Shown here: positions 33,101-64,000 of the stretch, in pieces
How positions within the stretch are numbered: position 1 is the first letter of the stretch
Layout: each line of letters opens with the position of its first letter
Source of the DNA: an uncultured Gemmatimonadaceae bacterium
Lineage (GTDB): Bacteria > Gemmatimonadota > Gemmatimonadetes > Gemmatimonadales > Gemmatimonadaceae
DNA: 64,000 nt
Assembly (NCBI GenBank): GCA_963781585.1
Contig: CAWAGQ010000006.1
Coordinates: forward strand, 416,001-480,000
Direction: 5' to 3'
Translations under genes and position numbers: made by a program
Notes under the pieces: generated by a model
What the model saw: only the letters and a program-made list of their open reading frames with translations
What the model was told of the DNA's origin: nothing
Databases searched by the model: none

Positions 33101-33141
33101 AGTCTCGGTTCATCTTCTTGAGGCCTAAACGAACTCTCCCC

Positions 33142-34095
33142 GTGCCCTCAATCTTCTGGGCATTCGTCGCGCTCGACGCAGCACTCCTCGTGATACTCGT
33201 CGTCCTGGGCGTCATGAGCCCGGCCACCCCCGATGGCGGCCCGGAGATGTCGCTCATCTTCTTCGTCGTCGTTCCCGCGGTACTCATCGGCGGCGCGGTG
33301 CTGCTGTTCCTCAAAGCCGGATCGCCGGTGTGGCGGATGGTCGCGTTGGTCATCGCGGCCGGTCCGGGTCTACTCCTGGCCGGCACGCGCCTTCGGAGTG
33401 CGATGATCGACTATCGAGTGCGCCAGAATGCGGAGGGAAGCGGCTATTTCTCCGGCCAACACCTGAAGCGCGCTGCTGCCGCCGTGGTTCGACGCGACGT
33501 GGCCACGCTTGCTGCGCTCGATAGAAGCATCGACGTCAACGCCAAGGGCGTGCGCGGCATGACGCTCATGGAGCTCGCGGTCACGCAGGCGCTCGATTCG
33601 TCGACGCCGGCACCGGCCGGTTCGACCTCACTGGACGTCGTGCACACCTTGCTCTCTCGCGGCGCCGATCCAAACGCCGGCGTGGAGATCGCCACGAAGC
33701 TGGCCGACAGCACGATTCTGTTGGCGCTCCTCGATGCGGGCGCCAAGCCCGGGTTCGCCAACGACCACGGCCCGGTCGCGTTCCAGTGGCTCAACGTCAT
33801 GCCGCTCGCGAATTTCACGGCGCTGCTCGATCACGGCCTCGACGTCAACCTGAGCGATGTATTCGGTACGCCGCTCGTCATCGCCGCGGCGGAAAACGAT
33901 CGCTGGAATTTCGTGCTGCTCCTCATCGACCGCGGCGCGGACGCATCTCGCGTCGCGCGCAACGGAACCCGGCTTGCCGACGTCGTGCAGAGCCGGATCG
34001 AATCGACGAGCGAACGGCCGCCGGAGATGAGCGCCGACATTGCGCGCGTGAAAGCGAGACTGACCGCACAGAAGCCGCACCCGACGCCGCGATGA
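33142..34095 (+). CDS. Membrane protein with ankyrin repeats
   Basis: Three N-terminal TM segments; LLSRGADPN, GTPLVIAA and LLIDRGAD; start uncertain (33118 or 33142). Confidence 0.8.
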   Translation: MPSIFWAFVALDAALLVILVVLGVMSPATPDGGPEMSLIFFVVVPAVLIGGAVLLFLKAGSPVWRMVALVIAAGPGLLLAGTRLRSAMIDYRVRQNAEGSGYFSGQHLKRAAAAVVRRDVATLAALDRSIDVNAKGVRGMTLMELAVTQALDSSTPAPAGSTSLDVVHTLLSRGADPNAGVEIATKLADSTILLALLDAGAKPGFANDHGPVAFQWLNVMPLANFTALLDHGLDVNLSDVFGTPLVIAAAENDRWNFVLLLIDRGADASRVARNGTRLADVVQSRIESTSERPPEMSADIARVKARLTAQKPHPTPR

Positions 34096-39251: not shown

Positions 39252-39337
39252 GCCTAACGCCCTGGGTTCGGCGGCGGCCGGATGAAATAGCAACGCCGCC
39301 GCAGGCCGCGCAAGCGCCGCCGGCCGATCCGCCTAAC
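39252..39337 (-). mobile_element. Partial attC-like site between two GTTAGGC cores
   Basis: Minus-strand GTTAGGC at 39331-39337 (contains the ankyrin stop) and at 39252-39258, with a GC-rich imperfect hairpin between them. Confidence 0.5.
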
Positions 39338-44404: not shown

Positions 44405-46171
44405 CTACTCGGGCGGCGCAATGTCGTCCAGTTGGTCGAATCGCAGGTTGCTCACGCCCTCACCCCGACCGGCTTGCTTCGATCGGCCAAGCCAGAGATA
44501 GGTCTGCCCCGATGTCCAGCGCGCGCGCTGCCAGGCTCGCTCCACGATCACGCCGGCGCGCGGCACCTCCTCCTCGTTGATGAAGAACGGCGGCGGCACC
44601 TCGGTGAGGAGACGGCCGCGCGCGCCGGGTGCTCCCGGCATTCGCGCGCGCTGCAACTGGATCTCCGACGTGCTTCCCGCGAGATGGACGGGCAGAAACG
44701 GGATCCAGTTGCTCGGCACCGTGGTGCCGGCGACGTACCGGATTGCCGCCGTGCCCGCGGGAACAAACGGCGGCGGTGGCGGCGTGCCGATGTCGAGCTC
44801 GTCGCCGCGCACACCGGCGCCGGCGGCCGATGGCACGACCTTCTCCACCGCCCACACCATCTTCGCCGCCTCGTCGCGCAGGAAATTGACCTTTTCGATC
44901 GGGTCGCTCTCCAGCATCTGGGCGATCGAGGAGGCCAGATAGAACCTGCTCGACGCCGATGCGGCGCCGCCGCGATCGGTATTCTGGAACATCGCCCATC
45001 GGTGCCAGGTGGTGCCTTCGCTCCGGCCGGCCGGCCGGATCAGCGTCTCCACGCCGAACACGTCGGTTACCACGATGCCCTCTACGCTGCACAGGGTATT
45101 GAACGGCATTGGAAATGGAAGCATGAACCAGTCGTTCGAGTAGATCAGCCCGAACTCCGCGAAGACCAGGTGCAGGAGTCCCGTCGGTGACACGCCGATC
45201 GCGCCGAAGTCCGTCTGGTTCTCCTCCATCTGCCAGAAGCGCGGATTGGGCATGCCCTTGAAGCTGAGTGGCGCCGGAATGAACGACGACAGAACCTCGG
45301 CGTCGGGCGGGGCGGTCGGCGTCGTTTCCCCGTCCGCGATCATCGCCTGGCGCGAGTCCAGATCGAACGAGTACCAGTCGATGTGGCCCTGATAGTACTC
45401 GTCGGCCAGAAGGACGCTCTGCTGCCCGGCCGGCGTCGCGAGGCTGAATCCGTACTCGAGCTGCCGCGTCTTCCAGGCATTCTCGGCCGGCAATGACGGC
45501 TGGCTGTAGGTCCGCGCGAACCACGCGAGCAGGGGCGCCGCGAGGTCATCCAGGGCTGTCTTGTCCGCGCCTGCGATCGTGCCCTCGGCATCGAGCCACT
45601 CGCGAAAACGCGTGAGCGCGGGATTCACGCCCGGCGTGGTCATGTCGCGGTACATCGCGTAGCCGTTCCACCACCGCGTTCTGGCCGCGCCGTAGAGCTG
45701 CGTTCCGCTGTAGTCGTTAGGCTCGGGAGCGAAAACGAGCGGATACTGCGCGATCAGCGCGTCCCGGTGCGCGGAGACGAGCGCGGCACCGAGTTTCCAG
45801 TACGACCGCGCGAGTTCGACGGCGAGCCCGAGGTCGCCGATGAGCATTTCGCGCTCGACGCGCGTCTCGATCGGGATCGTGTCGTCGTAACTCTGGACCG
45901 GCCCGGATCCGATCAACGCGCGGTCGACGTGCTGCTGCACGCTCAGGATTCGCGCGCCGATCGGCGTCGCGGCGTCCTCGCCCTGAAACTCGCCCATCTG
46001 CCACTGCCGCGTGAGCAGCCACATCGGGTCGCGCACCTCGGCGCGCAGGCTCCGGGTGAAGTCGGTGCTGCGCGGACTGGCCTCGAGCCGGTTGAACGCG
46101 GTCACCGTCGGGAGGCGGAACTCCGCCTCGTAGACGCTTTCGAGTGTGGCGATGGGAATGGCTGCGGTCAT
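44405..46171 (-). CDS. Uncharacterised 588-aa protein (last gene of the giant operon)
   Basis: Protein-like composition with Trp-rich blocks (DPMWLLTRQWQMGEFQGED, GMPNPRFWQME, YSNDWF); no signal peptide; 7 nt from the upstream gene. Confidence 0.88.
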   Translation of the reverse strand: MTAAIPIATLESVYEAEFRLPTVTAFNRLEASPRSTDFTRSLRAEVRDPMWLLTRQWQMGEFQGEDAATPIGARILSVQQHVDRALIGSGPVQSYDDTIPIETRVEREMLIGDLGLAVELARSYWKLGAALVSAHRDALIAQYPLVFAPEPNDYSGTQLYGAARTRWWNGYAMYRDMTTPGVNPALTRFREWLDAEGTIAGADKTALDDLAAPLLAWFARTYSQPSLPAENAWKTRQLEYGFSLATPAGQQSVLLADEYYQGHIDWYSFDLDSRQAMIADGETTPTAPPDAEVLSSFIPAPLSFKGMPNPRFWQMEENQTDFGAIGVSPTGLLHLVFAEFGLIYSNDWFMLPFPMPFNTLCSVEGIVVTDVFGVETLIRPAGRSEGTTWHRWAMFQNTDRGGAASASSRFYLASSIAQMLESDPIEKVNFLRDEAAKMVWAVEKVVPSAAGAGVRGDELDIGTPPPPPFVPAGTAAIRYVAGTTVPSNWIPFLPVHLAGSTSEIQLQRARMPGAPGARGRLLTEVPPPFFINEEEVPRAGVIVERAWQRARWTSGQTYLWLGRSKQAGRGEGVSNLRFDQLDDIAPPE

Positions 46172-46178
46172 CGCGACC

Positions 46179-49100
46179 TCAGGTCAGGTTCGGATTGACG
46201 TAAAACGTCGTCAGCAGGGGCATCGCCGAGAGGTTGAGCCGATAATCCAGCGAGACGTTGAGCGCGAACTGCTGGAACTCCGCTATCACCGCCGGCAGAA
46301 GAACACCGAGCTCCGGGTTGGCCGCCCGCTGGTCGAGCAGCAGCGGCTCCACGGCGCGCATCTTCGCCCGGCGGAGGGTGTCGTTGAGGATTCCGACCAG
46401 CGCGTCCCAGCTCCAATGACCGGTCATTTCCGGAGGCACGGCGAGCAACAGCGCCTGCGGCGGCATGGCGTTCGGCCGATTGTAGTTGAAGGCCACACCG
46501 GTGCTCTGGTCCCGGGCCGGAATAGTCTCCGTCCACGAATCCACGAGAACACCGCTGCGCAGGGAACCGGCGGTGTACGCTGCGTCGCCGTGGGTGACGA
46601 TCGACAGGGTATCGCTGGCGATGTCGTACGGCTCGCCGGTGGCGGGATCGGTGTCGGGAAGCCCAACGGCGAGCCAACTGTCCCGGGGGCGATAGGGAAG
46701 CTGCACCGCGCTCAGGTCGAGCGACGACGCGAACAGCGTTTCACGCAACAGGCGGATGCGTTCCCAGGCCGCGATCCTGGGGCGCACGTATGCGACGCCG
46801 CGAATCCACTCGTCTTCAGGTGTCGGCATCGCGAGCGTGTTCACGGCGTGATCGACGAGCTGCCCGTGATCGGCGTGCGATTGCATCAGCTCGCTCTCGT
46901 TGTCCAACGCGAATGCCGGGATCACCGGGAACGCGTCGCCGAGGATGGCTTTGCACGCGTCGCTCGCCAGGCCGACCGCCTTCTCGTTCGCGTCCGTGGC
47001 GGCGATGTCGGCGTCGGTGAGCGCCTTGTCGCTCGCCGCCCGGCGGGTGGCTGCTGCGTTCGCGGCGTCGATCGCCTGCGACACGAGCGCCAGCTTCGAG
47101 CCGTCGCGGGTGACGTCCTGGGTGCGCGGAAACGCATCGGCAAGGCCAAAGGCGGCCAGGTGAATCAACTGCTCCTGCAGCAGCAGCATGTCGCTCGACG
47201 CGAACGTGAACGCGAGATCGGTGACGTCGGCGTCCTGCGCGCGAATCTCGTCGAACGCCTGGCCGAGCGTCGTGACATTCACGGCGCCGATCGAGGCGGT
47301 GAACGGCAGCCCGCGGATCGTCGAGAGCACGCCGTCGATCTGCGTCTGCAGCGCGGCGGCCCGCGCGCGCAGCTCGGCAAACACGGATCCGGAGTCCGGC
47401 GTTCCCCCCTGCGTGGTGGAGGTGTGGTAGTCGCGCGCGTCGAGCGGACGGGAGTCGTGGAGCACTCGCTGCAGCGCGAGCATCAGCGGCATCACCTCGG
47501 CCATGCTCAGCCTGGATGGATCGCCGGTGGGCGCGCCGAAGTCGATCTGCACGCGCGCGGTCTCGTCGAGTCCGTGGTCGGCGCGATAGCGCCAGGCGAC
47601 GCGCGTCTCGATCTCCGAGGCTCCGGTGCGCCCGCCGTCGCCCGTGGCGGCGTCGGTCCCGAGGATCGAGATCAGGTCGATGGGCTGGAGTGCGAGGTCG
47701 GCGGCCGACATCGTCGCCGGGTTCACGAGTGTTTCGTCGTCCTGCCGCTCGGACACCTGCATGACGAAGTGATTCGGGGCGCCGAGGACGGCTCCGAGCC
47801 ACTGATTCACTCCCGGCTCGAGCGAGGCGCGTGGCGTCATCGGCACTGGCCACGCCGCGGCCGCGGGATCGCCGGGATCGAGCCGCGTGAAATGAACCGC
47901 GACGCGCTGCGTGAACGTGAACCGGCTGCTGCGCGGCGTCCTGACGACGTCGAGCTGCGGGGGCACCTGCGCGTCCTTGATCGAGCCGAGCACCGCGCCC
48001 GCGCGATCGAAGTTGGACTGCACCATCTGATACGCGCTTTCGGCCAGCAGGAGATCGTTGACGGCATCGAGGGTGTCGGCGATGCGGTCGCGCTCCGCGT
48101 TGAGCGCGGCCAGACGGGGCGCGGTCAGGACGGTTGCGTCGGCGCCGGTAATCGCCGCCCAGTTCGGCGACGCGGTCGCGGCGAGCGTCAGGCCGTTGAC
48201 GACGTCGTAGGTGTCGACCGTTTCCTGCGCCCCGCCGGCGTCTCCGCCCGCGATGCGCATTCGCCGAATCGGAAACGCGACCCGGATGTCGAAGAGCAGG
48301 CCGTTCAGCACCTGGAGCGACGCGTCGGCCGAGGCGCGGTCGTGGATGCCGCGCTCGAACTGATAGCCAAGCAGCGCTTCCACTGCCTGGCCGTTGCGCA
48401 TCCCCTCGAGAATGAACATCGCCCGGCGGACCCGCTCCGAGGTGAGGTTCACCGCCATGACGTCGGGGTTGGTGTCGGTCGCGTGGCTCATGTACCCGGC
48501 GCGCAGCACGGCGGCGGCGGTCGCGTGATTGATCGACGGCGCGTGGACGAACCCGCCGTTGTCGGTGTATTCGCGCAGCGGCGTGCCCCTGGGTGAACGG
48601 AGCTTGTCGGGGACGTCCTGCACTGCGGCGAACGAAGCCGACGGTCGCACGTTCTCCACCCAGCCGAACCCGCCAAGATAGGATCCGGGATTTCTGGTGG
48701 CGCCGCGCGCGGGGGGAACGCCGCGCAGCGTCTCGAGCCTGCCCTTGAAGAGCGCCGTCTGCCACGCGTCGAGCCGGTAGGTGCACGCATCCACATGCTC
48801 GGTGAAGCATCGCTCCAGGCGTGCGGTCGACCGACTGGCGAGCGAGTCGATGGATTCCCGCATCTGATCGAGGAACGCCGTCTCGCTGAGTGAAACGGTC
48901 GGCAGCAGGAGGTAGTCGGCGACGCGGAACGACTTGTACGGGCTGGCTGGGTCGATTGCGCCCACGGGGGCGCGCAGCACTTCCCATCGCGTGAGATCTC
49001 CGCCGGGTCGCACGTTGTGGAACGTGCTGGCGAGGGTCGTTGCCTTCGCGTCGACGCCCCGGCCCTTCATCCACAGGACCGCGCTCTTGTGGAGCTGCAG

Positions 49101-51758
49101 AATGAGGGCGTGTCGCGCCTGGAGATAGAGCAGCGCCGTCGGCACCGGCGCGCCGCCGAAGTTCTGGGCCGACAGCGCATCGACCGACGTCGCGTCGCGC
49201 AGCCAGTGGAGATAGTTCTGGTGCGCAACGGTGTCGTACTCGCGGATCGGGTCCGTCTCGGACAACGGGACGCCGTCGATGAGATTGGCCGCGTCGAGCG
49301 ACGTCGTGAAATTCTGGAAGACGAGCTTGGTGAGCTCGAACAGGTTGCCCGTCAGGCCGGGGGCGGCCGGCAACCCTGCCCAGCTTCGCAGGAGATTGGT
49401 GACGTTGACGCCGCGGAGCCCCGCGGCGATGACCCGGTCGGATTCGGCGCCGCCGGCCTCGAAGTTCACGAGGTTGGCGAGATACTCCAGCGTGTAGGCA
49501 ATCCGCTGCGCGAAGGTGACAGACCCGGGCTGGAGCCCGAGCACGTTGAGGAGCATGTCATCGGCGGCCAGACCCGGCTTGCCGGCGAACGCGAGCTGCG
49601 GAATGATGGCAGTCCAGATCGCGTCGAAGTACTGAAGGAGCTTGTAGAGCATCGGTCGAAACGGATCGGACTTCGCGGAGACGGCGGTCTCCTTCCACCT
49701 CACGAAATCGCTCGTCAGGAGGATACCGTACGGCTGATCGCCGATGCGGATGGCCGAGAGCGGCCCGCGACCGGTGACGTTGGCGACGAAGAAGTCGCGG
49801 AGCCGATCGCGTCCCGATTCGCTCACCAGCGGGTCCAACAGGGTGTCGAAGTAGTAGCCGAGCGTCGCGGGATAGAGCGCGGCGTTCATCGCCACCGCGT
49901 CGCTGTAGTCCGTGTTGTCACTGTTGAAGACGAACTGCAGTGTCTCGTAGGAGACACCGAGCCCGTCGGCGAGCAGCCTGCCGTCGGTGGTTGAGGCGGG
50001 GGTAAAGAGCGGGACGTCGAGGCCGGTGACCTCCTGCGTGTGCGTGAGCAGGTCGTTGACGGAGTACCCCGATCCGTCGCCGTCGGTGTTGTTGGTGGCG
50101 GTGCCCTGGGCCAGAAGCGACAGGCCCTTTGGCGAATGCTGATGGTTCGACAGCAGTGTCTCGAGCGCCTCGCCGCCCGACGCCGCGGAGCGCGACGCCA
50201 TCACCCCGAGCACAAGGATCCTGTCGAAGCCGGATTGGAGCTGCGCCGGGGTGATGGGGATGCGAAAGCCCATTCCCAGGCTCACGGCGCGGTCGAAGTT
50301 GGACGCCCAGTCGTAGTTCGGGCCAAACGTGAGTTGGCCATCGACCGTGACGAACGAATCCTCGTTGTCCGCCTGGTCGGCGTCCGCGGCGAGGTCGAGC
50401 GGCTCGGGTCCGAGCATCAGCTCGTCCGGGATCACGTTGCCCACGACCTCCTTCACGATCGTGCCGCCGGTGTACAGGATCGCCACGAACCGGTCGGGGA
50501 GCACGTTGGAGCGCGGCGCGCGCGACCATGAGCTGGTGCTGGTGAGGTCGTGCGGCGGAAAGGTGAGATCGTCGGTAGTGGCCAGGGTGCTGAGCGCGGA
50601 CCAGTTGGTCGGCCGCGTTTGTCTCGCCACCCACGCCGAGCGCGATGGGCCGAAGAGCGCGGCGAAGTTCTTCCACGTTTCGGTCTTGCGGGAGCCCTTG
50701 CCGCTGTCGGTGTCCTTTTCGATGCCGAAGATCGATCGCCAGTACTCTTCGCCGGCGGCGACCTCCCGGTCGGTGAGCTCGTTCTCGTGCGTATGAACGG
50801 CGATGTCATCGGGATAGACGCGAAGCCACAGCTCGGGCGACGGCACCGGCGCAACCGCTCCCACGGCGAGAGCGCCTGCCGGTGCAACGCCCGGCGGGCC
50901 CGCCGCCGGACTTCCGGCTGGAATTCCACCCGGAGGCGGCGGCTGGCTGACGAACCGCGTCTCGATGCGTACCGGCAGGAGGAGGAACGGGGTCGTGTCC
51001 GGCATCTGCGCGACGGCCGACCGGGGATGTGGGTCGACGTAGATACCGGTGATCGTGTCGTGCAGCGCCCCGGTGGTCGCCTTCCACGACCCCTTGGTCT
51101 TGGCATACTGCGCGTTCAGCGCCGCGAGCCGTTCCCGAATCTGGTCCGGCGTGGGTCCGGCCGCGCCCTTGAGGGCGCCGATCTCCGCCTGGTTGTCGTC
51201 GATCGCCTGACGCGTGTCACTCGTTTGCGCGACGATCTTCTGCAGCGCCTTGCGCGCTGCGGCCGCCGCTTGCTCGATTGCGGCCTGATTGTCGGTGGCG
51301 GCCGCCAGCGACCCCGTCGTATCGGCGATCTGTGCGCGCGTGGACTCGATCGAGGCCTCGAGGGAATCCGCCAGCGTGCGGTCCTTGGGCCGGGCGGTTT
51401 GCGCGAGCGCGATGCGACTCTCGAGCTGGTCGAGCGCTGCGCGAAGCGCGGTGAGCGACTGCTGCAGGAACGTGATGCGTTGCCTGCCGGCGTCCACGCT
51501 GCCGATCGCGGCGCGCGCCGACTGCTCGGCGGCCGACAGCGAGCGCAGGGTGGACTCCAGCTGCGCGATCTCGGCGCGTCGAGCCGTAACTTCGGCGGGG
51601 TCGGGCGGGCCGAGCTTGCCGCCGGCCTGCTGACTCTTGCGGAGCGCGGCGGTGTCACGCGAGATCTGCGTCCGCAACGCGTACATGCGCTGCCCGAGAT
51701 CATCGCGCTGCGCGCGGAGTCGGTCGATTACCGGCAGGTGGTCGTCGAGGGTAGCCAT
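46179..51758 (-). CDS. Uncharacterised 1859-aa protein with N-terminal coiled coil
   Basis: About 240-aa heptad-rich N-terminus, then LLPVRIETRF, RVYPDDI, YRLDAW, LGYQFER and PPQALLLAVPP blocks. Confidence 0.9.
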   Translation of the reverse strand: MATLDDHLPVIDRLRAQRDDLGQRMYALRTQISRDTAALRKSQQAGGKLGPPDPAEVTARRAEIAQLESTLRSLSAAEQSARAAIGSVDAGRQRITFLQQSLTALRAALDQLESRIALAQTARPKDRTLADSLEASIESTRAQIADTTGSLAAATDNQAAIEQAAAAARKALQKIVAQTSDTRQAIDDNQAEIGALKGAAGPTPDQIRERLAALNAQYAKTKGSWKATTGALHDTITGIYVDPHPRSAVAQMPDTTPFLLLPVRIETRFVSQPPPPGGIPAGSPAAGPPGVAPAGALAVGAVAPVPSPELWLRVYPDDIAVHTHENELTDREVAAGEEYWRSIFGIEKDTDSGKGSRKTETWKNFAALFGPSRSAWVARQTRPTNWSALSTLATTDDLTFPPHDLTSTSSWSRAPRSNVLPDRFVAILYTGGTIVKEVVGNVIPDELMLGPEPLDLAADADQADNEDSFVTVDGQLTFGPNYDWASNFDRAVSLGMGFRIPITPAQLQSGFDRILVLGVMASRSAASGGEALETLLSNHQHSPKGLSLLAQGTATNNTDGDGSGYSVNDLLTHTQEVTGLDVPLFTPASTTDGRLLADGLGVSYETLQFVFNSDNTDYSDAVAMNAALYPATLGYYFDTLLDPLVSESGRDRLRDFFVANVTGRGPLSAIRIGDQPYGILLTSDFVRWKETAVSAKSDPFRPMLYKLLQYFDAIWTAIIPQLAFAGKPGLAADDMLLNVLGLQPGSVTFAQRIAYTLEYLANLVNFEAGGAESDRVIAAGLRGVNVTNLLRSWAGLPAAPGLTGNLFELTKLVFQNFTTSLDAANLIDGVPLSETDPIREYDTVAHQNYLHWLRDATSVDALSAQNFGGAPVPTALLYLQARHALILQLHKSAVLWMKGRGVDAKATTLASTFHNVRPGGDLTRWEVLRAPVGAIDPASPYKSFRVADYLLLPTVSLSETAFLDQMRESIDSLASRSTARLERCFTEHVDACTYRLDAWQTALFKGRLETLRGVPPARGATRNPGSYLGGFGWVENVRPSASFAAVQDVPDKLRSPRGTPLREYTDNGGFVHAPSINHATAAAVLRAGYMSHATDTNPDVMAVNLTSERVRRAMFILEGMRNGQAVEALLGYQFERGIHDRASADASLQVLNGLLFDIRVAFPIRRMRIAGGDAGGAQETVDTYDVVNGLTLAATASPNWAAITGADATVLTAPRLAALNAERDRIADTLDAVNDLLLAESAYQMVQSNFDRAGAVLGSIKDAQVPPQLDVVRTPRSSRFTFTQRVAVHFTRLDPGDPAAAAWPVPMTPRASLEPGVNQWLGAVLGAPNHFVMQVSERQDDETLVNPATMSAADLALQPIDLISILGTDAATGDGGRTGASEIETRVAWRYRADHGLDETARVQIDFGAPTGDPSRLSMAEVMPLMLALQRVLHDSRPLDARDYHTSTTQGGTPDSGSVFAELRARAAALQTQIDGVLSTIRGLPFTASIGAVNVTTLGQAFDEIRAQDADVTDLAFTFASSDMLLLQEQLIHLAAFGLADAFPRTQDVTRDGSKLALVSQAIDAANAAATRRAASDKALTDADIAATDANEKAVGLASDACKAILGDAFPVIPAFALDNESELMQSHADHGQLVDHAVNTLAMPTPEDEWIRGVAYVRPRIAAWERIRLLRETLFASSLDLSAVQLPYRPRDSWLAVGLPDTDPATGEPYDIASDTLSIVTHGDAAYTAGSLRSGVLVDSWTETIPARDQSTGVAFNYNRPNAMPPQALLLAVPPEMTGHWSWDALVGILNDTLRRAKMRAVEPLLLDQRAANPELGVLLPAVIAEFQQFALNVSLDYRLNLSAMPLLTTFYVNPNLT

Positions 51759-51764
51759 GGCCGG

Positions 51765-54700
51765 TCAGAGCGATGCCAGCATCTCGGACGCGTGGACCGC
51801 GACCATGCTGGGCTCCTGAAAGAGAACGTACGCCATGTTCGCCGAGCTGGTGGCCCACTTGTCCGGCGAATTGTCGGTGGGCGAGAAGCCGGTGGGGTGC
51901 GGGCTTGCGGTGATGAAGTCGGGGTTGGGGGCGGGGAAGTTGGTCCAGGCCAGGTCGTTCCACGAAACCCCATCCGAGCCGGGATCGTAGCTGATGTCCA
52001 TGCCGAAACGGGGCTCGCCCGGTACCTCCTGAATCACGAAGAACCACCCCAGCGTGTCGGTCGCAAGAAAGCCCGGGCTCGGATCGTCGCCGCGCGCCTG
52101 TCGCGCGGTGAGATCGAAGCCGAAGAACTTGATGTCGGGCGCGATGTCGGCGCGGTAGAGTGGGAACAGGAGCTCCTGCGTGAATTCGGCGCCCGTCAGG
52201 TCGAGATCGATGACCGGTACACCGCCGCTGCCGGCGATCGCTTTCTGTGCGAAGACCACGGAATTGGGGTAGCGCTTGAGCAGGTCGCCGCGCACCACGA
52301 GCACGATCTGCGACGTGTCGCCCTGCGCGTCGCGGTTGTTGTGGGTGCCGAGGCGGGAGTTGCGCGTCCAGGTGTGGATGGGCGTGATGTCCTTGTGCTC
52401 TTCGGCCAACTGCGCGGGCGTCTTCCCCGTGCTCGGCTCCACCAGTCCGCTCACGTCCCAGAACTGGCGGAAGTAGCTTCCGCGCTCGTCGGTCGGAAAC
52501 TCGCTCCACAGCAGCGTGCGTCCCATCTCGTAGTTGAGGCCGACCATGTACGACTCGATCACCGGCTCGTTGGTCTCGAGCAGCGAGATCGTGTTGGGTG
52601 GGATCAGCTTGAGGTTGGCGACGAGGAATTCGTCGGACTGCCCGGTGAGCTTCTTGTACATCGGCTCGTCGAAGTCGGGATAGGCCATCGCCTCGACGAG
52701 CGGCTCGGACGGCACGGTCCACGGCACGTTCCGGATCTTTATCATTCGCGAGAGGCGGGTGCCGTGGGCCATCCGCGGCTCGAGAGCCACGGTGAGCCTG
52801 GCCTGCGCGTTCGACAGCGAATACGCGGTCGGCGGCGGAAGCTCGGGAGGCGCCAGCGCGGCGATCTGCGACAGCCCGGTCACCGCGGACCTGAAGTTCT
52901 GCGCCTCTTTGCTCTCGCCATTCGCGCCGCCGGGCGTGGCGCTCGGCGCAGTGGCTTCGGCGAGCAATCGCACGTTGAAGTCCGGTCGCGCCGGCACGGT
53001 CGCCAGAACCGTGTCGGCCGTGGCCGGATTGGAGACGAGGGTGGACTCCTCGTGCGCCGCGGCGGCCGCCTGAGACCTTCTCGCCACCGTCGCCACGACC
53101 GCGGCGCCCACTACCGCCGCGAGCAGGGCGGCGCCGACTCCGGCCGTCGCCAGCAGCACGATCACGATCAGCACGACAAGCAGGATGAGAATCAGCAACC
53201 CCAGCCGGGACATCGGTGGAACGGTCGTGCCGGCGGGCGGCGTGACGGCACCGCCCAGATCGGTGGTCGTGGGAAGTCCGGCGGGCGTCGGCCGTGGCGG
53301 CGCGGCGGTGAGCGTTCCGTCGTTGAGGCCATCGACCACGCTGGTGAAGTTGTCGGCGGTGATTCCCGTTCGGCGCGCGAACGGACCACGCGGTCGCATG
53401 AAACGTCGGAACGCGGCCGACAGCGCAGCTACGGGCAGGCGGCTCACGGTCAACTGATGGAAGAGCGTGGTCGGGCTTCCCATCACCCGTGGCAGCACGG
53501 CGCGGCTGATGGCGACCAGTTGCGTCGTCGGCAGCTTCCGGAACGTGGCGGTGAAGAGCGGCGTGGCGAAGGCGATTGCGGCCTTGGCGTTGCGGATGGC
53601 GCGGTTGGCCTGATTCACCTTGTCGACCTGTTGCCAGGCCGACTTCATGTAGCGGTCCTGATTCTCCTGGATAACGAGCGACCCGACCCCAGCCATGGTG
53701 CGCGTGCGCGGATCCCGGTTCAACTCATCCAGCCACCGGTCCTGCGTGATGTCGAGGAGAATCACGTCCTCCGGATGCTGCCGCACGTGGTTCTTGCCGT
53801 AGAGCGGCATCGTGACGATCGGATCCTGTGCCGTGTCCGCGGCGGTCTGCTCGCCCAGGTTCACGACGTCCTCCAGCGCGGCCTGGAAGTCATTGCTTGC
53901 CGGCGGATCGGGGAAGACGGTGGAGACCGTGGTGGGCGCCTTGAGCGCGGCCTCGAGGCCGAGGATCGGCGGGCTGGTGGCCGGGATCGGTCCCGAGCCG
54001 TCGGCTTTGACGAAACCGGGCGCCGAGCAATCCATGTCGCGGATGCCGACGCGTGGATCCATCGGCCGTGGCACGAGGAGGTTGGCCAGCGACTCGAAGT
54101 CCTCGTTCTCTCCGGTGCGGAAATACCACTCGAAGTAGACGGGCATCTCGGCGGCGGTGCCGTCGGCCGCCCACGCGGGCTGCTGCGCGTCGACGGTGTC
54201 GGTGGCCTGGCCCAATCCGGCGAGACGACCGGTCTCGAAGGTCGGGACGACGAACGCGGTGTACGCCGTGTTGGGCTTGAGGTGCCGCGGACTCATCAGC
54301 CGAGAGTACAGGCCGTCCGGGTCGGTCGTGATCGTGGTGTTGAGCGAGTTCAGGAACCTCTCGTAGGTGCTCAAATCACTGTCAGGGAGGTCGACGTTGC
54401 TGTGGACGTGTGCCCACATCCACAGCTCGTTCGCCGGCGGCATCGCTGTGCGGTCCTTGACGTTGATCGACGGCAGGGGGACGCGGCGCTGGGTGCGCTC
54501 GAACTCGTCGTCCTCGAGGACGAGCAGCGCCACCCACGGACGCAGGCGCTCGCCCGACGCCTGAGCCGGCGTGTACCGCCAGCTGAAGTCTTCATCGTAG
54601 AACTCGATGAACGCGAGGTAGTTCGGCTCGAAGTCCGTGATCCAGTTGAGCGGCTCGGTGCGAACGATCATGTCGCGGTTGATGCCGATGATGTCACCCG

Positions 54701-54881
54701 GACCGATGAGCGCGAAGTTCTTCGAGACGTCGGTGGCGTTCGCCTTGAGCGCGACCGGCACGGTCGCACGCTCCCTGGTGTGGACGGTGCCGCTGCCGAG
54801 GTCGTCGGCGTCGGTGATGTTCGCCGACATCCCGCGACGCGCCCACGAGTGGAACTGGTATCGCGCGACTTCGATCGTCAT
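51765..54881 (-). CDS. Uncharacterised 1038-aa protein with an internal 40-aa hydrophobic segment
   Basis: FSWRYTP, PWVALLVL, SRLMSPR, FPTDERGSYFRQFWD and RGDLLKRYP blocks; ATGA overlap with the upstream gene. Confidence 0.9.
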   Translation of the reverse strand: MTIEVARYQFHSWARRGMSANITDADDLGSGTVHTRERATVPVALKANATDVSKNFALIGPGDIIGINRDMIVRTEPLNWITDFEPNYLAFIEFYDEDFSWRYTPAQASGERLRPWVALLVLEDDEFERTQRRVPLPSINVKDRTAMPPANELWMWAHVHSNVDLPDSDLSTYERFLNSLNTTITTDPDGLYSRLMSPRHLKPNTAYTAFVVPTFETGRLAGLGQATDTVDAQQPAWAADGTAAEMPVYFEWYFRTGENEDFESLANLLVPRPMDPRVGIRDMDCSAPGFVKADGSGPIPATSPPILGLEAALKAPTTVSTVFPDPPASNDFQAALEDVVNLGEQTAADTAQDPIVTMPLYGKNHVRQHPEDVILLDITQDRWLDELNRDPRTRTMAGVGSLVIQENQDRYMKSAWQQVDKVNQANRAIRNAKAAIAFATPLFTATFRKLPTTQLVAISRAVLPRVMGSPTTLFHQLTVSRLPVAALSAAFRRFMRPRGPFARRTGITADNFTSVVDGLNDGTLTAAPPRPTPAGLPTTTDLGGAVTPPAGTTVPPMSRLGLLILILLVVLIVIVLLATAGVGAALLAAVVGAAVVATVARRSQAAAAAHEESTLVSNPATADTVLATVPARPDFNVRLLAEATAPSATPGGANGESKEAQNFRSAVTGLSQIAALAPPELPPPTAYSLSNAQARLTVALEPRMAHGTRLSRMIKIRNVPWTVPSEPLVEAMAYPDFDEPMYKKLTGQSDEFLVANLKLIPPNTISLLETNEPVIESYMVGLNYEMGRTLLWSEFPTDERGSYFRQFWDVSGLVEPSTGKTPAQLAEEHKDITPIHTWTRNSRLGTHNNRDAQGDTSQIVLVVRGDLLKRYPNSVVFAQKAIAGSGGVPVIDLDLTGAEFTQELLFPLYRADIAPDIKFFGFDLTARQARGDDPSPGFLATDTLGWFFVIQEVPGEPRFGMDISYDPGSDGVSWNDLAWTNFPAPNPDFITASPHPTGFSPTDNSPDKWATSSANMAYVLFQEPSMVAVHASEMLASL

Positions 54882-58319: not shown

Positions 58320-59756
58320 TCAAACGGTCTGTACTGATTCGTGCACCCGCGCGTCCGGGCCGGCGTCTCCCGCGGCCGCCCGCTCCAGCATCTCCTCCAC
58401 CGACGTGATCCCGCTCACGAGATGGAGAAGCGGTACGGTGTTCGCTGCGACCGCGGCCGCGAGCGCCGCGCTCCCCTGCTCCTGCAGCACCACCGACATT
58501 CGCAGTACGACATTCGCCGGCGACACGTCCGCGATCTCCGGCGGAATGCGATGTCCGGGCTCGCGCGCGCTCTTGATGAAGTGCCCGGTGAACGCGGGCC
58601 CCTGGTACCGATGCCAGGCGACCTTCACCTGGCGATTGTCATTGAGCAGCCGGTTGATCTCATCACCGTGTTCGCGGAACATCGCGAGCGCCGCGCGCCC
58701 GACCTCCAGGGTGTCCAGCACTCTCACGATGTCGTCGAGGTGGTCGGGACCGGGCGCCTGAAGCGGCTCGGCGACCGAAGCGCTGCCGAGCGGGATGGTT
58801 CCCGGGGTGCCGGAATTGATGATCGTGATCCCCATCGCCGCCGTGACGTCGGTGATGATGTTCGCAAAGCTGTCATTGGTATTCGTGTTGACGCCCCAGC
58901 ACAGCCCGACCACCACGTTCTGGTCGTTGACCAGCGCCGAGCCGGAGTCGCCGAACCACTGGAAATGGTCGAAGCCGGCATCGGGAGCGATGTGGATCTG
59001 GTTCGCGCGGGCCGGAATCTGCTTGGCCGGATTTCCGGCGGTCGGCCCCTTCGGGTCGGTAACCGTGCCGGTCGTGAGGCCGGTGGTGCGCCCGCGCTTC
59101 ATCACGTGGTCGCCCGGCGCCACGGTCGACCCGCCGGCGTTCAGCGTCGCCGCGCCGAGAATCAGACCGATGTCGATGATCTCGTTCATGAACCCCGGTG
59201 CGCCGGTGATGCGCGCGATGGCGCAGTCGACCAGTCCGTTGTTGAGCGAGTTCACGACCACGCCCACGATGTTACCCTTGCAGCAGCAGCAACACGAGAT
59301 CGTCGACTGTCCGATCTTCTCGCCGTTCGACGCGCCGCCCGCCATCATCACGTGGTGGTTGCTCAACATGACGATCGAGCCGTCGCTGTCGAGCCGGGCG
59401 ATGCATCCCATCGTGCCGACCTCGCTCGACGAGTCGTTACCGATCTGGATGCCGCCGAGGAGGGGGCGGTACCTGCCATCGTCGTCGGCGAGCGTCGGTA
59501 CGGGCTCCACGAGCACGTCGGTCTTCACGCCAAGGACCTCGACGGGAATCACTTTCTTCCGCGGCAGTTCGTTCGCCGGGAGTTTCTTCTCCACATAGAC
59601 GCGGAAGACGATTTGCTCGGTCGGTTTGCCCGCGGTCTCCTTGAGCCCGACCGAGACGTGGCGCACGCCGGGATATGCCATCAACTGCTCGCGCGCCTTC
59701 GGCAGCAGCGCCGAAAGCCGGGTGAACTCGGCTACCCGTTCGTGTCGCGGTCTCAT
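58320..59756 (-). CDS. Trypsin-like (Nal1-type) serine protease with CCCCC motif and helical C-terminal domain
   Basis: Triad SNHHV / DCAIA / GDSGS, KRGRTTGLT, N-terminal YPGV..V.VG...RVYV.KK domain; ATGA start at 59756. Confidence 0.88.
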   Translation of the reverse strand: MRPRHERVAEFTRLSALLPKAREQLMAYPGVRHVSVGLKETAGKPTEQIVFRVYVEKKLPANELPRKKVIPVEVLGVKTDVLVEPVPTLADDDGRYRPLLGGIQIGNDSSSEVGTMGCIARLDSDGSIVMLSNHHVMMAGGASNGEKIGQSTISCCCCCKGNIVGVVVNSLNNGLVDCAIARITGAPGFMNEIIDIGLILGAATLNAGGSTVAPGDHVMKRGRTTGLTTGTVTDPKGPTAGNPAKQIPARANQIHIAPDAGFDHFQWFGDSGSALVNDQNVVVGLCWGVNTNTNDSFANIITDVTAAMGITIINSGTPGTIPLGSASVAEPLQAPGPDHLDDIVRVLDTLEVGRAALAMFREHGDEINRLLNDNRQVKVAWHRYQGPAFTGHFIKSAREPGHRIPPEIADVSPANVVLRMSVVLQEQGSAALAAAVAANTVPLLHLVSGITSVEEMLERAAAGDAGPDARVHESVQTV

Positions 59757-60163
59757 CGTGCACCCCCCGCCAGGGTTCCGGCACGAATCCGCGCGAACAG
59801 GTCGGAGAGACTGGCACACTCGCTGGCCGCTGCCAGCACCGGGGACGCGTACCGCCCTACCGTAGCCGCCAGCTCGCGGCTTCCGCTCTGCTGCAGCGCG
59901 TCGGCCATGCGGAGCAACAGCCGCTCGAGCGACACCCCGTCGAACTCCTTGCGTACCGGCGTGTGCTCGTCGAATCCGCTGTCCATCGCCGAGGTGAGGA
60001 ACTGCGGACCATGGTTGCGCTGCCACGCCACCATCACCCCGCGGTTGTTGTTCACCAGGCGATTCACCTCGTCCACGTGCGACATGATCACGCCCAGGAT
60101 CTCGCGTCCCGGCGGCGACGCGTTCAGCTCCTCCTCGAAGTACTCGAGTTTGCGCATCGTCAT
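59753..60163 (-). CDS. 136-aa protein paralogous to the C-terminal domain of the adjacent protease
   Basis: ATGA overlaps at both ends; HVDEVNRLVNNNRGVMVAWQRNHGPQF vs HGDEINRLLNDNRQVKVAWHRYQGPAF. Confidence 0.85.
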   Translation of the reverse strand: MTMRKLEYFEEELNASPPGREILGVIMSHVDEVNRLVNNNRGVMVAWQRNHGPQFLTSAMDSGFDEHTPVRKEFDGVSLERLLLRMADALQQSGSRELAATVGRYASPVLAAASECASLSDLFARIRAGTLAGGAR

Positions 60164-60834
60164 ACCGGTTGTGGTGCGGTATCGGAGTACAGCCAGATGC
60201 CGGTGGTCGCGTCGACCACGTGGCGCATGTGGTTGCGCGCGTCGGGGTGAATGTTGGCCATCGCCGCGTAGCCTTCGGCGGCCATCTCGATACCGCGCGT
60301 CTGAATGATCCAGACGTTGCGCGGGCTGTAGTGCCGGGTGTGGTGGGTGACGAGGTAGGCGATGATCTGCTTCGCCGACTTCGGCGGCACCGGTCCGGTC
60401 AGCTCGAGCTGCTTGAGCGCATTGTAGAAGTCGACGTCGGGCTCGGCGTCGGGCAGACCGACGAACCGTTCGCCGAGGTTGCGAAGCTGCCGCTCCTCCT
60501 CCGGTGCGCTGGGGAAAGGCGCGATCGGCCGCGCGCCCGCCGCCCACGGCGAGGTGATCTTGTAGACGATCGCCGTCCGTGGATTCACCACCGTGTCCAC
60601 GCTCTTGATGTTCGGGAAGCGCGGCCGCCCGCCTCGGGCCGTGATTTCGTCGAGCCGGTCGAGGTGCAGACGCGGGTGCGTCTCGTCCTTGCGCCAGTGG
60701 CGTTCATCCTCGGCCGACGTCCTGAGGAAGGGAACGAATGTGCGCTCGACCGTCGCCGGCGGCGCGGTGATGGCCTCCGGCTTCACCTCGAAGCCCAGGG
60801 TGCGCGTCGCGCGCTCGATGGCAGGGTTGGTCAT
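60160..60834 (-). CDS. Hypothetical protein with PepSY-like C-terminus
   Basis: In-operon ORF with a VWII...VVDATTG.WL tail. Confidence 0.7.
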   Translation of the reverse strand: MTNPAIERATRTLGFEVKPEAITAPPATVERTFVPFLRTSAEDERHWRKDETHPRLHLDRLDEITARGGRPRFPNIKSVDTVVNPRTAIVYKITSPWAAGARPIAPFPSAPEEERQLRNLGERFVGLPDAEPDVDFYNALKQLELTGPVPPKSAKQIIAYLVTHHTRHYSPRNVWIIQTRGIEMAAEGYAAMANIHPDARNHMRHVVDATTGIWLYSDTAPQPV

Positions 60835-60844
60835 GGTCGATCGG

Positions 60845-62809
60845 CTACGGATTCACGTCCCAGATGTCGAGCGCATCGGCGCCGACGAAGTCACAGCCGT
60901 GCTCGGCCGCGTCCGTCACCGAGCAGTTCGCAGCCACCAGCCCGGCGCCCACGTATCCGCCGGCGATCAGTCCCGACGACGAGCTGCTCGAGAACGCCGT
61001 GCCCGTCTTGTACTGGCAGTGCGAGATGTGGCACTTGGAGCCGGCGGTCCCCGGCATCTGCGAGCCAAGGTCGTAGACCTCGGCGGTAAAGTCGACGCGA
61101 TCGCCCGACTCGGCGATCCACCCCGCGTTCGTGAAGTTGTCCTTCGCGACACTGCCCACGAAGAAATCCCAGCGTCCGGTCGCCGGATCCACCACGCATT
61201 CGTACTCCTGCGTCGTCCCGACTACGGGGAACCCGGGGTCGTTGTGGATGGTGTTGTGGTAGTCCGCGGGATTCGGTCCCGCCTGGACTTCGTACTTGAG
61301 ATACTGGACGACCGCCGCCGCGCCGCTGCTGCGCCGCCGCGTGATGCCGATCTGCCCCCACTTCGTGATATCGCCCTTGGTCACCCCCGTCCACACTGTG
61401 GTGAACGCCTCGTAGGTTGCCGTGCCCTCGCAGGGCAGATTCATCGGGAAGGTGTCGATCGTCGCCTTGCAGCCGAGCAGCCGGGGGACGTGCTTGCTCG
61501 CCCCGGCGTACCAGCGCGGCCCGCCGGCGATACGCGGCGCGCACGACGAGCTGCTCGAGCGGCTTGATGATGATCGGACCGACGAGCTCGACGACGCACT
61601 GGATGAGGAACTGCTTGACGAAGACGAGCTGACGGACGACGACGAGCTGCTCGGCGATGCACTGCTGGACGACGAGGCGACCGCCGACCCCGCGGCGCTG
61701 CTCGACGAACTCCCGGGAAGTTCCGCCGCGGCGCTCGAGCTGCTGCCGCAGTTGCTCGACGGAATGCCGAGCCCGGTGCCTGCGTCGCCTGCGATCCTGA
61801 TGCCCATCGCCGCGAGCACGGTCCCGATGTGATTGGCGACGCCACGGTTCCGTGTGCCGCGGTCGGCGCCCCACAGCAGGCCGACGACCTTGCCGTCGCT
61901 GTTGACGATCACCGATCCCGAGTCCCCGAAGTAGGCAAACCTGGGGAACCCGGGCAGGGGATTGATCAGGATCTGACTTCCCTCATACAGCACGTCGACC
62001 ACGGTGCCGCGCGTGAGCCGCGTGGCCGACCCGCGCTTGCGCACCTCTGAGAAACAGACGGCCTGCGCCACCCCGGTCAGCGCTCCGATGTCCACCACCT
62101 GGTTCAGGGTACCACCCGCCGTCACGCCGCTCACCGCGTCGCCGTCGAGCTGCACGATCGCACAATCGACCTGCGTCGTCTTCTGCGAGCGCAGCACCGC
62201 GCCGATCTCGTTGAAGGTGCAGCAACAGCAGCAGGTGATATGTCGCGGCTGCCCCACCTTCACGCCGTTGCAGGCAAAGCTCGTCGGCGCGCCCGACGCC
62301 GCGGACCCACTCGATGCCGAACCGGCGCCGACGTTGAACTCCGTGCCGGCGCACGCGATGTGCTGGCTCGTCAGCGCCACCATCGTCCCGTCGGTCGTCT
62401 GCGCGAGACAGCCGATCGTCCCCATGCCGCGGGTATTGTCGCCCTCGAACTTCGCCGTGCGGAGCTGCGATCCCCCCTGGAGCGGCCGGTACTTGGTGGT
62501 GTCGCGATTCGGCGCGAACGCGACCAGCGAGCTCGAGGACATCGCCTCGAGGGCGGGTGCGACGATCACGTCCGTGCGTACGCCGAACACGTCGGCCGGC
62601 ACGCGATACGAAACAGGAAGAACCGCGGCGTCGAGCTTCTCGGCGACGTACACGCGATACGCCAGCTCGGGCACCAGCTCGCCCCGGATTTCGCGCGCAC
62701 CCACACCGACACTCAGTACGCCGGGATAGCGCGACAGGATCGCCGACGCCTCGTCGTATCGGTCGACCAGCTGCTGCTGCCGGTTGAGGACCTCGCGATC
62801 GATCGGCAT
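60845..62809 (-). CDS. Trypsin-like protease (CCCCC motif) + poly-Ser linker + glutamic-peptidase-like (G1/neprosin fold) domain
   Basis: Triad TSQHI / DCAIV / GDSGS; Ser-rich linker; C-terminal VWTGV...WGQIG...FTAEV...QMPG. Confidence 0.85.
   Translation of the reverse strand: MPIDREVLNRQQQLVDRYDEASAILSRYPGVLSVGVGAREIRGELVPELAYRVYVAEKLDAAVLPVSYRVPADVFGVRTDVIVAPALEAMSSSSLVAFAPNRDTTKYRPLQGGSQLRTAKFEGDNTRGMGTIGCLAQTTDGTMVALTSQHIACAGTEFNVGAGSASSGSAASGAPTSFACNGVKVGQPRHITCCCCCTFNEIGAVLRSQKTTQVDCAIVQLDGDAVSGVTAGGTLNQVVDIGALTGVAQAVCFSEVRKRGSATRLTRGTVVDVLYEGSQILINPLPGFPRFAYFGDSGSVIVNSDGKVVGLLWGADRGTRNRGVANHIGTVLAAMGIRIAGDAGTGLGIPSSNCGSSSSAAAELPGSSSSSAAGSAVASSSSSASPSSSSSSVSSSSSSSSSSSASSSSSVRSSSSRSSSSSCAPRIAGGPRWYAGASKHVPRLLGCKATIDTFPMNLPCEGTATYEAFTTVWTGVTKGDITKWGQIGITRRRSSGAAAVVQYLKYEVQAGPNPADYHNTIHNDPGFPVVGTTQEYECVVDPATGRWDFFVGSVAKDNFTNAGWIAESGDRVDFTAEVYDLGSQMPGTAGSKCHISHCQYKTGTAFSSSSSSGLIAGGYVGAGLVAANCSVTDAAEHGCDFVGADALDIWDVNP
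61541..61760 (-). repeat. Low-complexity poly-serine coding tract
   Basis: About 70 aa dominated by Ser, encoded by mixed TCG/AGC/TCC/TCA codons. Confidence 0.9.
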
Positions 62810-62812: not shown

Positions 62813-64000
62813 TCAGGCCGTTGTCCCGATAACGATCCGCCGTCGGCTGTACGAACGCATGTTCGTCTCGATCAGCGCGTCGCGACAGGTGTACCCGACG
62901 GCCTCCACGCTTCGCATCACCGCGTCGAGGATCTCGCCGTTGTGGTAGTCGGCTGCCGTCTCGAACAGGCACACGCGCGGCCGGTAGTGCCGCACGAGGA
63001 ATCGCATGTTCGGTTCGGCGAGCTGCGCGTCCCATGAGCAGTAGCCGTGGCTCAGCCCGAGGGCTACCAGCACGTCGGCGTGCTCGGGGAGATTCGCGTG
63101 GGCGAGGTGCTTCTCCTCGATTTGCTCCCACCGCCGCCCGGGATACTCGGCGCGCAGCCGGGCGATGATCGCCGGATCGATGTCGAAACCGAAGACGCGG
63201 TCGTGGCGATAGTACTCGTTGAGCGGCGAAAAGCCGCAGTAGGCCTCGAAGATCCGGTCGTCCGGCCGCAGCAGCGGACCCAGATGGTCCATGATCATGC
63301 TGCCGCGGTCGGATGGCGCGGTGAGGTAGCTCCACTTGTCCTCGACGCGCGGCGGGCGCGCGACCGCGACCAGGCTCAGCCCCGCGTCGAGGTGGAGCGT
63401 CGTCACTTCGATGCCGCGCGTACGGAGCGACTGCATCGTCCACGACACACCGCAGTTCGGATTCGTAGAGTCGTGAAACAGCACGACGCCGTCCGACATC
63501 AACGTCGAGTAATTGTCGAAGTCGCGCAGACTCTGCTGGTGCGTGTGCGCGCCGTCGATGACCACCAGCCCGACATACCGGCCTTGCGTCATGTCGCGCA
63601 CCGCGTCCAGCGCGTCGTCGGAGCGCATTTTGAAATGCCGAATCCACGGCGCAAGGCCAAAGAGACCGAACCACTTCTCGACTTCCGTGGAGTGCTCCCA
63701 GTGACCGCGCCCGTCCCAGGCCGGATCACCGCTGCCGGCATACGACGGATCGATGAAGATCACCTGTCCGTGCCCGTTGTCCTGCAGCCCACGAGCGACG
63801 CAGAGCGGCGAGAATCCGCGGGCCGAGCCGATGACCACGGCGAAATCGGGGCGGAGGTTGCGCGCCATACTATAGTAGAGCCAGCCGAACCCGAGATCGC
63901 CGCTGCCGGTGTTCTGCGACAGGGGCTCGGCGTACGCCACCGCCTTTTCGATGAACTCGTTCAGGGACAACGCGGCGCGTGTTGAGGCGCTGTGCTTCCC
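62813..64000 (-). CDS. Protein with two class I SAM-methyltransferase-like domains; frame open to the window edge (possible TTG start at 63970)
   Basis: IGSARGFS, IDGAH and VLFHD (Methyltransf_24-like), then EAYCG...GFDID; no in-frame stop between 63970 and 64000. Confidence 0.8.
   Translation of the reverse strand, partial: GKHSASTRAALSLNEFIEKAVAYAEPLSQNTGSGDLGFGWLYYSMARNLRPDFAVVIGSARGFSPLCVARGLQDNGHGQVIFIDPSYAGSGDPAWDGRGHWEHSTEVEKWFGLFGLAPWIRHFKMRSDDALDAVRDMTQGRYVGLVVIDGAHTHQQSLRDFDNYSTLMSDGVVLFHDSTNPNCGVSWTMQSLRTRGIEVTTLHLDAGLSLVAVARPPRVEDKWSYLTAPSDRGSMIMDHLGPLLRPDDRIFEAYCGFSPLNEYYRHDRVFGFDIDPAIIARLRAEYPGRRWEQIEEKHLAHANLPEHADVLVALGLSHGYCSWDAQLAEPNMRFLVRHYRPRVCLFETAADYHNGEILDAVMRSVEAVGYTCRDALIETNMRSYSRRRIVIGTTA

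Follow-up and report, generated by a model that had tools for sequence, protein, structure and literature searches.

What might a run of five consecutive cysteines be doing inside a serine protease? The question is raised by a 64,000-nucleotide stretch of DNA from an uncultured Gemmatimonadaceae bacterium (assembly GCA_963781585.1, contig CAWAGQ010000006.1, positions 416,001 to 480,000 of the forward strand; hereafter the window, with positions counted from its first letter). Two paralogous protease genes of the window, prot1 and prot2, each encode such a run between the catalytic His and Asp, and both lie in a cluster with a gene for a giant protein of the DUF6603 family. Comparison with relatives in several phyla indicates that the conserved unit is the Cys-rich tip of a beta hairpin, not the five Cys in a row, and a tentative case can be made that its thiols clasp neighbouring protease subunits. 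The features concerned are the following (aa, amino acids).

58320..59756, minus strand: prot1, 478 aa from MRPRHERV, a NAL1/alpha-lytic-type serine protease with an N-terminal alpha/beta segment (aa 1-85), the protease domain (about aa 95-315) and a helical C-terminal domain (about aa 336-478)
59352..59354, 59226-59228 and 58944-58946, minus strand: catalytic His135, Asp177 and Ser271 of prot1, in the motifs NHHV, VDCA and GDSGS
59241..59318, minus strand: beta hairpin of prot1 (beta4-beta5), aa 147-172, with strands 147-156 and 159-172 assigned by DSSP on the AlphaFold2 (AF2) model
59280..59294, minus strand: Cys run 1, C155-C159 of prot1, between H135 and D177, codons TGT TGC TGC TGC TGC
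60845..62809, minus strand: prot2, 654 aa, paralogous protease, with the protease at aa 1-350, a linker of about 60 aa and a beta jelly roll at aa 422-654
62219..62233, minus strand: Cys run 2, C193-C197 of prot2, between H150 and D215, codons TGC TGC TGT TGC TGC

Translation and alignment bear out what a first-pass annotation had reported from the letters of this DNA, namely five Cys at each of these two places between the catalytic His and Asp of paralogous proteases. The segments carrying the runs are GQSTISCCCCCKGNIVG in prot1 (open reading frame, ORF, 58320-59756, minus strand) and GQPRHITCCCCCTFNEIG in prot2 (ORF 60845-62809, minus strand), and each 15-nucleotide interval consists of exactly five Cys codons. 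The TGT codon indeed takes a different place in each run, codon 1 in prot1 and codon 3 in prot2. Over about 367 columns, prot1 and prot2 share 35% identity (E 3e-52), and their Cys runs align to each other. No other run of at least five Cys occurs in the six-frame ORFs of at least 150 aa from the whole 5.7-Mb, 67% GC source genome (5.2 million residues, 1.7% Cys), for which composition predicts about 0.008 such runs by chance. When this genome was searched by tblastn with the protease domain of prot1, only the prot1 and prot2 copies were found; a profile search added one distant protease on contig C15. To our knowledge, five-Cys runs are extremely rare in enzymes.

The family to which both proteins belong comprises at least 1,804 protein clusters and extends over Gemmatimonadota, Chloroflexota, Bacteroidota, Cyanobacteria and Acidobacteriota. 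This size comes from an exhaustive search with prot2: 1,804 cluster representatives had E values up to 0.001, and for 566 of them E was at most 1e-10. With prot1 as query, a word-indexed search yielded 147 proteins at E up to 0.001. Among the 120 matches listed, the longest Cys run was 5 in 48, 4 in 25, 3 in 30, 2 in 13 and 6 in 1 protein; the 3 homologues with a value of 0 (297-310 aa, 60-64% query coverage) are taken to be fragments. Close orthologues are far more uniform: CCCCC is kept by 28 of 29 proteins with 55-80% identity (P0002-P0030), the remaining one having CCCCCC.

The loop that runs from GQP to (I/V)G, counted over 242 aligned domains, contains no Cys in 8, one in 14, two in 5, three in 26, four in 70, five in 106, six in 12 and seven in 1. 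Cys occupancy in 231 domains rises towards the end of the run, from 84 at C155 through 137 at C156, 164 at C157 and 197 at C158 to 217 at C159, so that the last two Cys of the run are 85-94% conserved, and position 161 is Cys in 112. Outside the loop, Cys is found at C118 in 186 and at C178 in 161 of these domains, alternating with Ala, Val and Gly like buried positions. At least three Cys are present in 210 of 237 loops; 209 of these 210 contain a vicinal CC and 202 a CxxC. The commonest patterns of the 237 loops are CCCCC (58), CCCxC (40), CCCCxC (28) and CCCC (16), and other interrupted forms, e.g. CCxCCxC, are seen as well. Among orthologous loci, the same Cys are encoded by differing mixes of TGT and TGC. 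In a midpoint-rooted FastTree of 277 domains, for which the loop columns were removed, two or more loop Cys are found in 237 domains and one or none in 40. Parsimony explains this distribution by about 10 state changes, and CCCCC turns up in several distinct clades.

Because the loop is conserved, its codons change synonymously and losses on the tree are few, the Cys cluster is under selection at the protein level. The view that the motif is selected and not slipped is thus well founded, as shown by the 28 orthologues which keep CCCCC through synonymous TGT/TGC changes. As to conservation of the run itself, a cluster of 3-6 Cys combining CC with CxxC does persist throughout the family and close orthologues do keep the run, but the exact number of five is not retained, the run length varying from 2 to 6 in distant members. 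These patterns point to the Cys-rich beta4-beta5 hairpin tip as the selected unit. CCCCC is evidently one form among several that are tolerated, and has become fixed in the orthologue groups of prot1 and of prot2.

The AF2 model of prot1 (mean predicted local distance difference test, pLDDT, 89.5; predicted template modelling score, pTM, 0.71) places this hairpin in a well-known fold. Foldseek ranked rice NARROW LEAF 1 (NAL1) first (E 2e-15, probability 1.00), followed by alpha-lytic protease and streptogrisins. In VIA superpositions of the model, alpha-lytic protease gave Z 25.2 with a root-mean-square deviation of 1.8 A over 184 of 198 residues, and NAL1 gave Z 22.9 over 227 residues. A single-sequence search with prot1 matched nothing among the PDB sequences, whereas the profile A1, made from 112 homologues, retrieved NAL1 chains at E 3e-22. 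Its positions 35-139 and 190-307 align to residues 86-208 and 281-417 of 7y77_A, the GTLG...NHHV motif included, and H135 of prot1 aligns to NAL1 H234. In PHROGs, both proteins match phrog_20754 'protease' (E 1e-34 for prot1, 3e-27 for prot2). The Pfam family Nal1_C (PF25819) reached 16.5 bits on prot1 (E 0.0048), below its gathering cut-off of 26.1; prot2 gave a sub-threshold Trypsin_2 match (18.2 bits) and no Nal1 match. Many homologues carry precomputed matches to PF25819 or to PF25608 (Nal1_N). A search of NCBIfam returned nothing meaningful.

Both proteins show the ordered His-Asp-Ser residues of PA-clan proteases with a GDSG-type motif, and the model of prot1 forms the double beta-barrel. 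The triad of prot2 consists of H150, D215 and Ser297, its alignment row reading H/D/S as do 227 of the 242 aligned domains, prot2 included. Since the triad is intact and the fold is that of NAL1 and alpha-lytic protease, prot1 and prot2 both apparently encode active serine proteases of this type. Inspected by eye, the N-termini of prot1, prot2 and the cassette proteins described below have no visible signal peptide. One homologue (P0095) bears a JGI annotation as precursor of streptolysin S or a thiazole/oxazole-modified microcin (TOMM). We rejected this candidate function, which calls for a short leader-core peptide: the proteins are 450-650 aa long and have a protease fold, Pfam found no SagBCD-type cyclodehydratase/dehydrogenase genes in the cluster, and the annotation probably derives from the Cys run alone.

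According to DSSP, C155 and C156 close the first strand of the hairpin, C157 and C158 form a two-residue turn and C159 opens the return strand. Strand order puts the hairpin between His and Asp of the triad, where trypsin-like enzymes have their 70-80 calcium loop. This loop is an allosteric, metal-binding element of chymotrypsin-fold proteases. In trypsin and the coagulation proteases, its carboxylates and carbonyls bind Ca2+, with metal-dependent stabilising and allosteric effects. The likeness is one of topological place, deduced from strand order and not from residue superposition, and the ligands differ, being carboxylates and carbonyls there and a thiol cluster here.

What could a thiol cluster at this place accomplish? 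A role in metal binding or redox control, among those originally put forward for the run, is plausible. Comparison with NAL1 offers a suggestion. NAL1 is a hexameric cage of D3 symmetry; at the interface of its trimers, residues 264-271, which form a strand between H234 and D291, pair with the N-terminal strand of the two-fold-related subunit (PMC12012508). According to the same paper, intermolecular disulfides may reinforce this two-fold contact, and the His loop is catalytically competent, and the enzyme active, only in the hexamer (PMC12012508). Since the Cys-rich hairpin matches this His-to-Asp interface strand topologically, we favour a clasp between subunits. The five-Cys runs are the local form of a conserved Cys-rich hairpin tip in a large bacterial family of NAL1/alpha-lytic-type proteases. 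Their thiolates would either bind metal (Zn, Fe-S or Cu) in a compact site or be joined as disulfides, and would in this way stiffen the tip and most probably join neighbouring protease subunits. We put the probability of this reading at roughly 45%. The hairpins of adjacent subunits, in a homo-oligomer or in a combination of prot1 with prot2, would be clasped within a NAL1-like cage, so that metal or redox state would govern assembly and, through it, protease activity. With five Cys in a row, such a clasp would tolerate shifts of register. The hairpin turn with its CxxC is present once per chain, and a zinc-knuckle Cys4 site needs a second knuckle, which would have to come from another subunit. 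A more specific version of the clasp, in which adjacent tips (prot1-prot1 or prot1-prot2) share a metal-sulfur cluster on the symmetry axis of the cage and thereby gate the protease by metal or redox state, must be considered doubtful. If true, it would represent a previously undescribed control of a chymotrypsin-fold protease.

The proposal further holds that the proteases act as accessory subunits of a membrane-associated cassette built around the DUF6603 giant protein. Besides the two protease genes, the cassette region comprises the following genes.

62813..63970, minus strand: Methyltransf_24 methyltransferase (Pfam E 7e-17), upstream of prot2
60160..60834, minus strand: orf224, with no family match, 70% identical in the closest related locus (L002)
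59753..60160, minus strand: orf135, paralogous to the helical C-terminal domain of prot1 but encoded on its own, its stop codon overlapping the prot1 start codon
54878..58309, minus strand: DUF6603 giant protein, 1143 aa (PF20248, E 8e-134), directly downstream of prot1
51765..54881, minus strand: orf1038, assigned to the cassette core by synteny, with a central hydrophobic stretch
46179..51758, minus strand: orf1859, assigned to the cassette core by synteny, with weak coiled-coil-type matches only in its N-terminal region
44405..46171, minus strand: orf588, a cassette protein present in two other loci (L020 and L038)

Read along the minus strand, the order is Methyltransf_24, prot2, orf224, orf135, prot1, DUF6603, orf1038, orf1859 and orf588, and most junctions overlap or nearly abut. 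Related loci were sought with a 30-sequence alignment (A2). In 15 of 20 genome loci, which come from Gemmatimonadota, Chloroflexota, Bacteroidota, Cyanobacteria, Acidobacteriota and Planctomycetota, the protease gene is directly followed by DUF6603 and then by orf1038 and orf1859. With 28 metagenome loci added, 43 loci have a protease with at least three loop Cys, and 38 of these contain cassette core genes; four of the five others are cut by contig ends and the fifth is L018. The suspected association of the Cys run with DUF6603 clusters is therefore real. The methyltransferase, 71-74% identical in L002 and L003, was seen in only these two Gemmatimonadaceae loci, for which reason we place it outside the core. 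Within the phylum DUF6603 is sporadic (7 of 301 genomes), and the A1 profile matches 112 of the 301, mostly through distant proteases; the latter tally takes in three unpublished genomes (G182, G057 and G097), which enter into none of the other results.

The DUF6603 machine itself proved hard to annotate. Even at E up to 1, orf1038, orf588 and orf224 had no Pfam match. PADLOC recognised no defence system, its only signal being weak coiled-coil noise on orf1859; in the ESM Atlas the DUF6603 protein matched DUF6603 and nothing else, and a literature search for DUF6603 found no paper. The assignment of orf135 is clearer: it cross-matches the C-terminal domain of prot1 by tblastn across loci and aligns to positions 330-455 of the A1 profile (E 8.8e-31). 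Such a helical domain may serve for docking or regulation. A separate copy of it directly upstream of a gene for protease plus domain recurs in the Bacteroidota loci L009-L011.

Several points speak against the subunit clasp. The first comes from genome G283 of the same family as the window genome, where a locus (L038, G283:C2:698001-718000) has the full cassette of DUF6603, orf1038, orf1859 and orf588 together with three proteases whose hairpins are free of Cys. These tandem proteases have longer or different loops and keep the triad. A complete cassette without hairpin Cys means that at least one lineage can do without the cluster, and G283 is a clear counterexample to any obligatory role. 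Secondly, the NAL1 profile alignment skips exactly the segment from His to Asp, so that the equivalence to the NAL1 strand 264-271 depends on topology and not on residues. Thirdly, the tip is the least confident part of the modelled domain, with a pLDDT of 78 for the block aa 151-160 compared to 89.5 overall. Fourthly, neither three nor five Cys correspond to a canonical Zn(Cys)4 or Fe-S motif. Finally, as no export signal is visible, the proteins may be cytoplasmic, in which case stable disulfides would be unusual.

Six loci have Cys-poor loops: four (L012, L014, L052 and L021) are without cassette genes, one (L066) is a 3.7-kb contig, and the sixth is L038. In 13 other, more distant proteases of the phylum, the loop contains 0-1 Cys. 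A Cys-free homologue is also encoded by the Aeropyrum coil-shaped virus (L022, HE681887.1 10493-11473), where ORF 25-326 is named 'putative serine protease' and matches the N-terminal half of the protease family with 33% identity (E 8e-9).

Alternatively, the thiols might act within a single chain, CC or CxxC disulfides in one hairpin gating the His-Asp pair allosterically without any contact between subunits. The near-constant CC and CxxC of the Cys-rich loops, the placement of the hairpin between the catalytic His and Asp, and a strand order equal to that of the allosteric, metal-binding 70-80 loop would all suit such a redox switch. We nevertheless consider it unlikely, as 3-6 Cys exceed the need of a simple switch and the Cys-free proteases of G283 retain their triad. 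Moreover, paralogues at the same locus have similar Cys numbers, which fits a shared site better. In all 21 loci with at least two proteases, the counts differ by no more than one (from 0,0,0 up to 6,5), with a Spearman correlation of 0.64, or 0.47 without the two Cys-poor loci. This co-variation is only suggestive of a shared site, since the loci are related to one another.

Location at the membrane leads to another explanation. In orf1038, a hydrophobic stretch of about 40 residues (aa ~552-596; Kyte-Doolittle 19-residue maximum 3.71 at aa ~552-583) is a probable membrane anchor and suggests a membrane hairpin. Because of this stretch the cassette is probably membrane-associated, and the Cys string might be S-acylated or otherwise modified to hold the protease at the membrane beside the anchored cassette protein. 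Cys strings are acylation sites in eukaryotes. We know of no bacterial S-palmitoylation machinery for internal Cys strings, however, and neither Pfam nor synteny revealed a conserved acyltransferase or modifying enzyme among the cassette genes, the methyltransferase being confined to the two Gemmatimonadaceae loci mentioned above. A lipidation patch is for these reasons improbable.

The tight linkage of the protease genes to the cassette core would also be in line with a covalent tether, in which the hairpin forms disulfides to DUF6603, orf1038 or orf1859, and a cross-link to the large complex was among the functions originally put forward for the Cys run. The sequences do not support this idea. 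DUF6603 contains 2 Cys in 1143 residues, orf1038 1 in 1038, orf1859 3 in 1859 and orf588 1 in 588, i.e. 7 in 4,628 residues altogether. Each of the four large proteins thus has at most 0.17% Cys, compared to 0.86% genome-wide; 12% of large ORFs are at or below 0.2%. Among 13 orthologues of DUF6603 and 9 of orf1038, no alignment column reaches 70% Cys; the same comparison could draw on only 2 orthologues of sufficient length for orf1859 and 1 for orf588. The lack of conserved Cys in DUF6603 and orf1038 argues against a disulfide tether to these two proteins, as well as against a metal site shared with them, and we regard a tether as very improbable. For the same reason the Cys site of the proteases appears to be self-contained.

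Least credible of all is the absence of any protein-level function, be it a slippage or low-complexity accident or a pause at Cys codons sensing cysteine supply, for which polycysteine short ORFs of mycobacteria, described as cysteine-responsive attenuators in a preprint (bioRxiv 10.1101/834739), are a precedent, as the cluster keeps one structural position across phyla with interrupted patterns, synonymous codons and few losses on the tree (conservation and codon evidence on which we rejected slippage) and the run lies inside a long gene instead of a leader.

Set beside known systems, the subunit clasp finds partial parallels. NAL1 (PDB 7y77, 8pmm and 8pmg among others), a family marked by an ATP-binding N-terminal domain as well as by the D3 cage, shares with the window proteases the N-terminal alpha/beta segment, the S1-type double barrel and the His/Asp/Ser triad, but its His-to-Asp hairpin is unaligned in sequence and it has Ala at the family position C118. 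The main text of the NAL1 paper contains 0 occurrences each of 'cysteine' and 'zinc' and mentions no Cys cluster (PMC12012508). NAL1 is, moreover, a plant nuclear/cytoplasmic regulator, whereas the proteases considered here are bacterial, linked to a cassette and, in the window, below the Pfam cut-off. The protease domain superposes best on alpha-lytic protease and, with it, the streptogrisins (S1E). Those enzymes are secreted and have pro-regions and spaced disulfides, while no signal peptide is visible in the window proteases; we know of no Cys-rich hairpin tip in them.

Cys-based structural Zn sites away from the catalytic centre exist in other PA-clan proteases, namely HCV (hepatitis C virus) NS3 and picornavirus 2A. 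There the ligands come from two separate loops (CxC plus Cys/His) at another location, without vicinal poly-Cys. Clasps between chains by a shared Zn or a disulfide ladder are exemplified by the Rad50 zinc hook (CxxC) and the hinge of immunoglobulin G2 (CCxxCxxC), whose folds are unrelated to proteases, so that the analogy is a functional one only. Literature searches on poly- or consecutive Cys and on NAL1 in bacteria or prokaryotes found no paper describing a Cys-rich hairpin in these proteases.

The Cys run marks a structural element that is conserved in a family of at least 1,804 clusters of proteases, and this family is the most recognisable enzymatic part of the widespread DUF6603 cassette. 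If true, a metal- or redox-dependent clasp would provide an experimental handle on the DUF6603 machine, and would mean a new kind of regulatory site for chymotrypsin-fold proteases as well as for the relatives of the crop-yield protease NAL1. The Cys-free proteases of G283 form a natural comparison set.

The C-terminal part of prot2 differs from that of prot1. Its domain at aa 422-654 (60848-61546, minus strand) is a confidently modelled beta jelly roll (pLDDT 90.7, pTM 0.88). It had no Pfam match at E up to 1 and no match to PDB sequences by profile; its closest folds in the PDB were two glutamic peptidases, neprosin (E 1.4e-7, query TM-score, TMq, 0.62-0.64) and scytalidoglutamic peptidase, with GH16 glucanases and lectins next. 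In the family alignment of this domain (A3), Q65 and E86 are invariant and E40 and E156 nearly so. Elsewhere the module is joined to glycosyltransferase-like, amidase-like or Ig-repeat (immunoglobulin-repeat) N-termini. The domain could therefore be a second peptidase of the glutamic type or a binding module.

The linker in front of the jelly roll (aa ~355-420, ~61550-61750, minus strand) consists of about 60 residues, nearly all of them Ser. Upstream of prot2 are the Methyltransf_24 gene (62813-63970, minus strand) and a gene of the GT9 heptosyltransferase family (L001 2185-3348, minus strand). Cytoplasmic heptosyltransferases glycosylate Ser-rich autotransporters, and by analogy the Ser linker of prot2 may be glycosylated. 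A few kb past the end of the cassette, two ankyrin-repeat proteins are encoded at 33118-34095 on the plus strand and at 39333-40628 on the minus strand.

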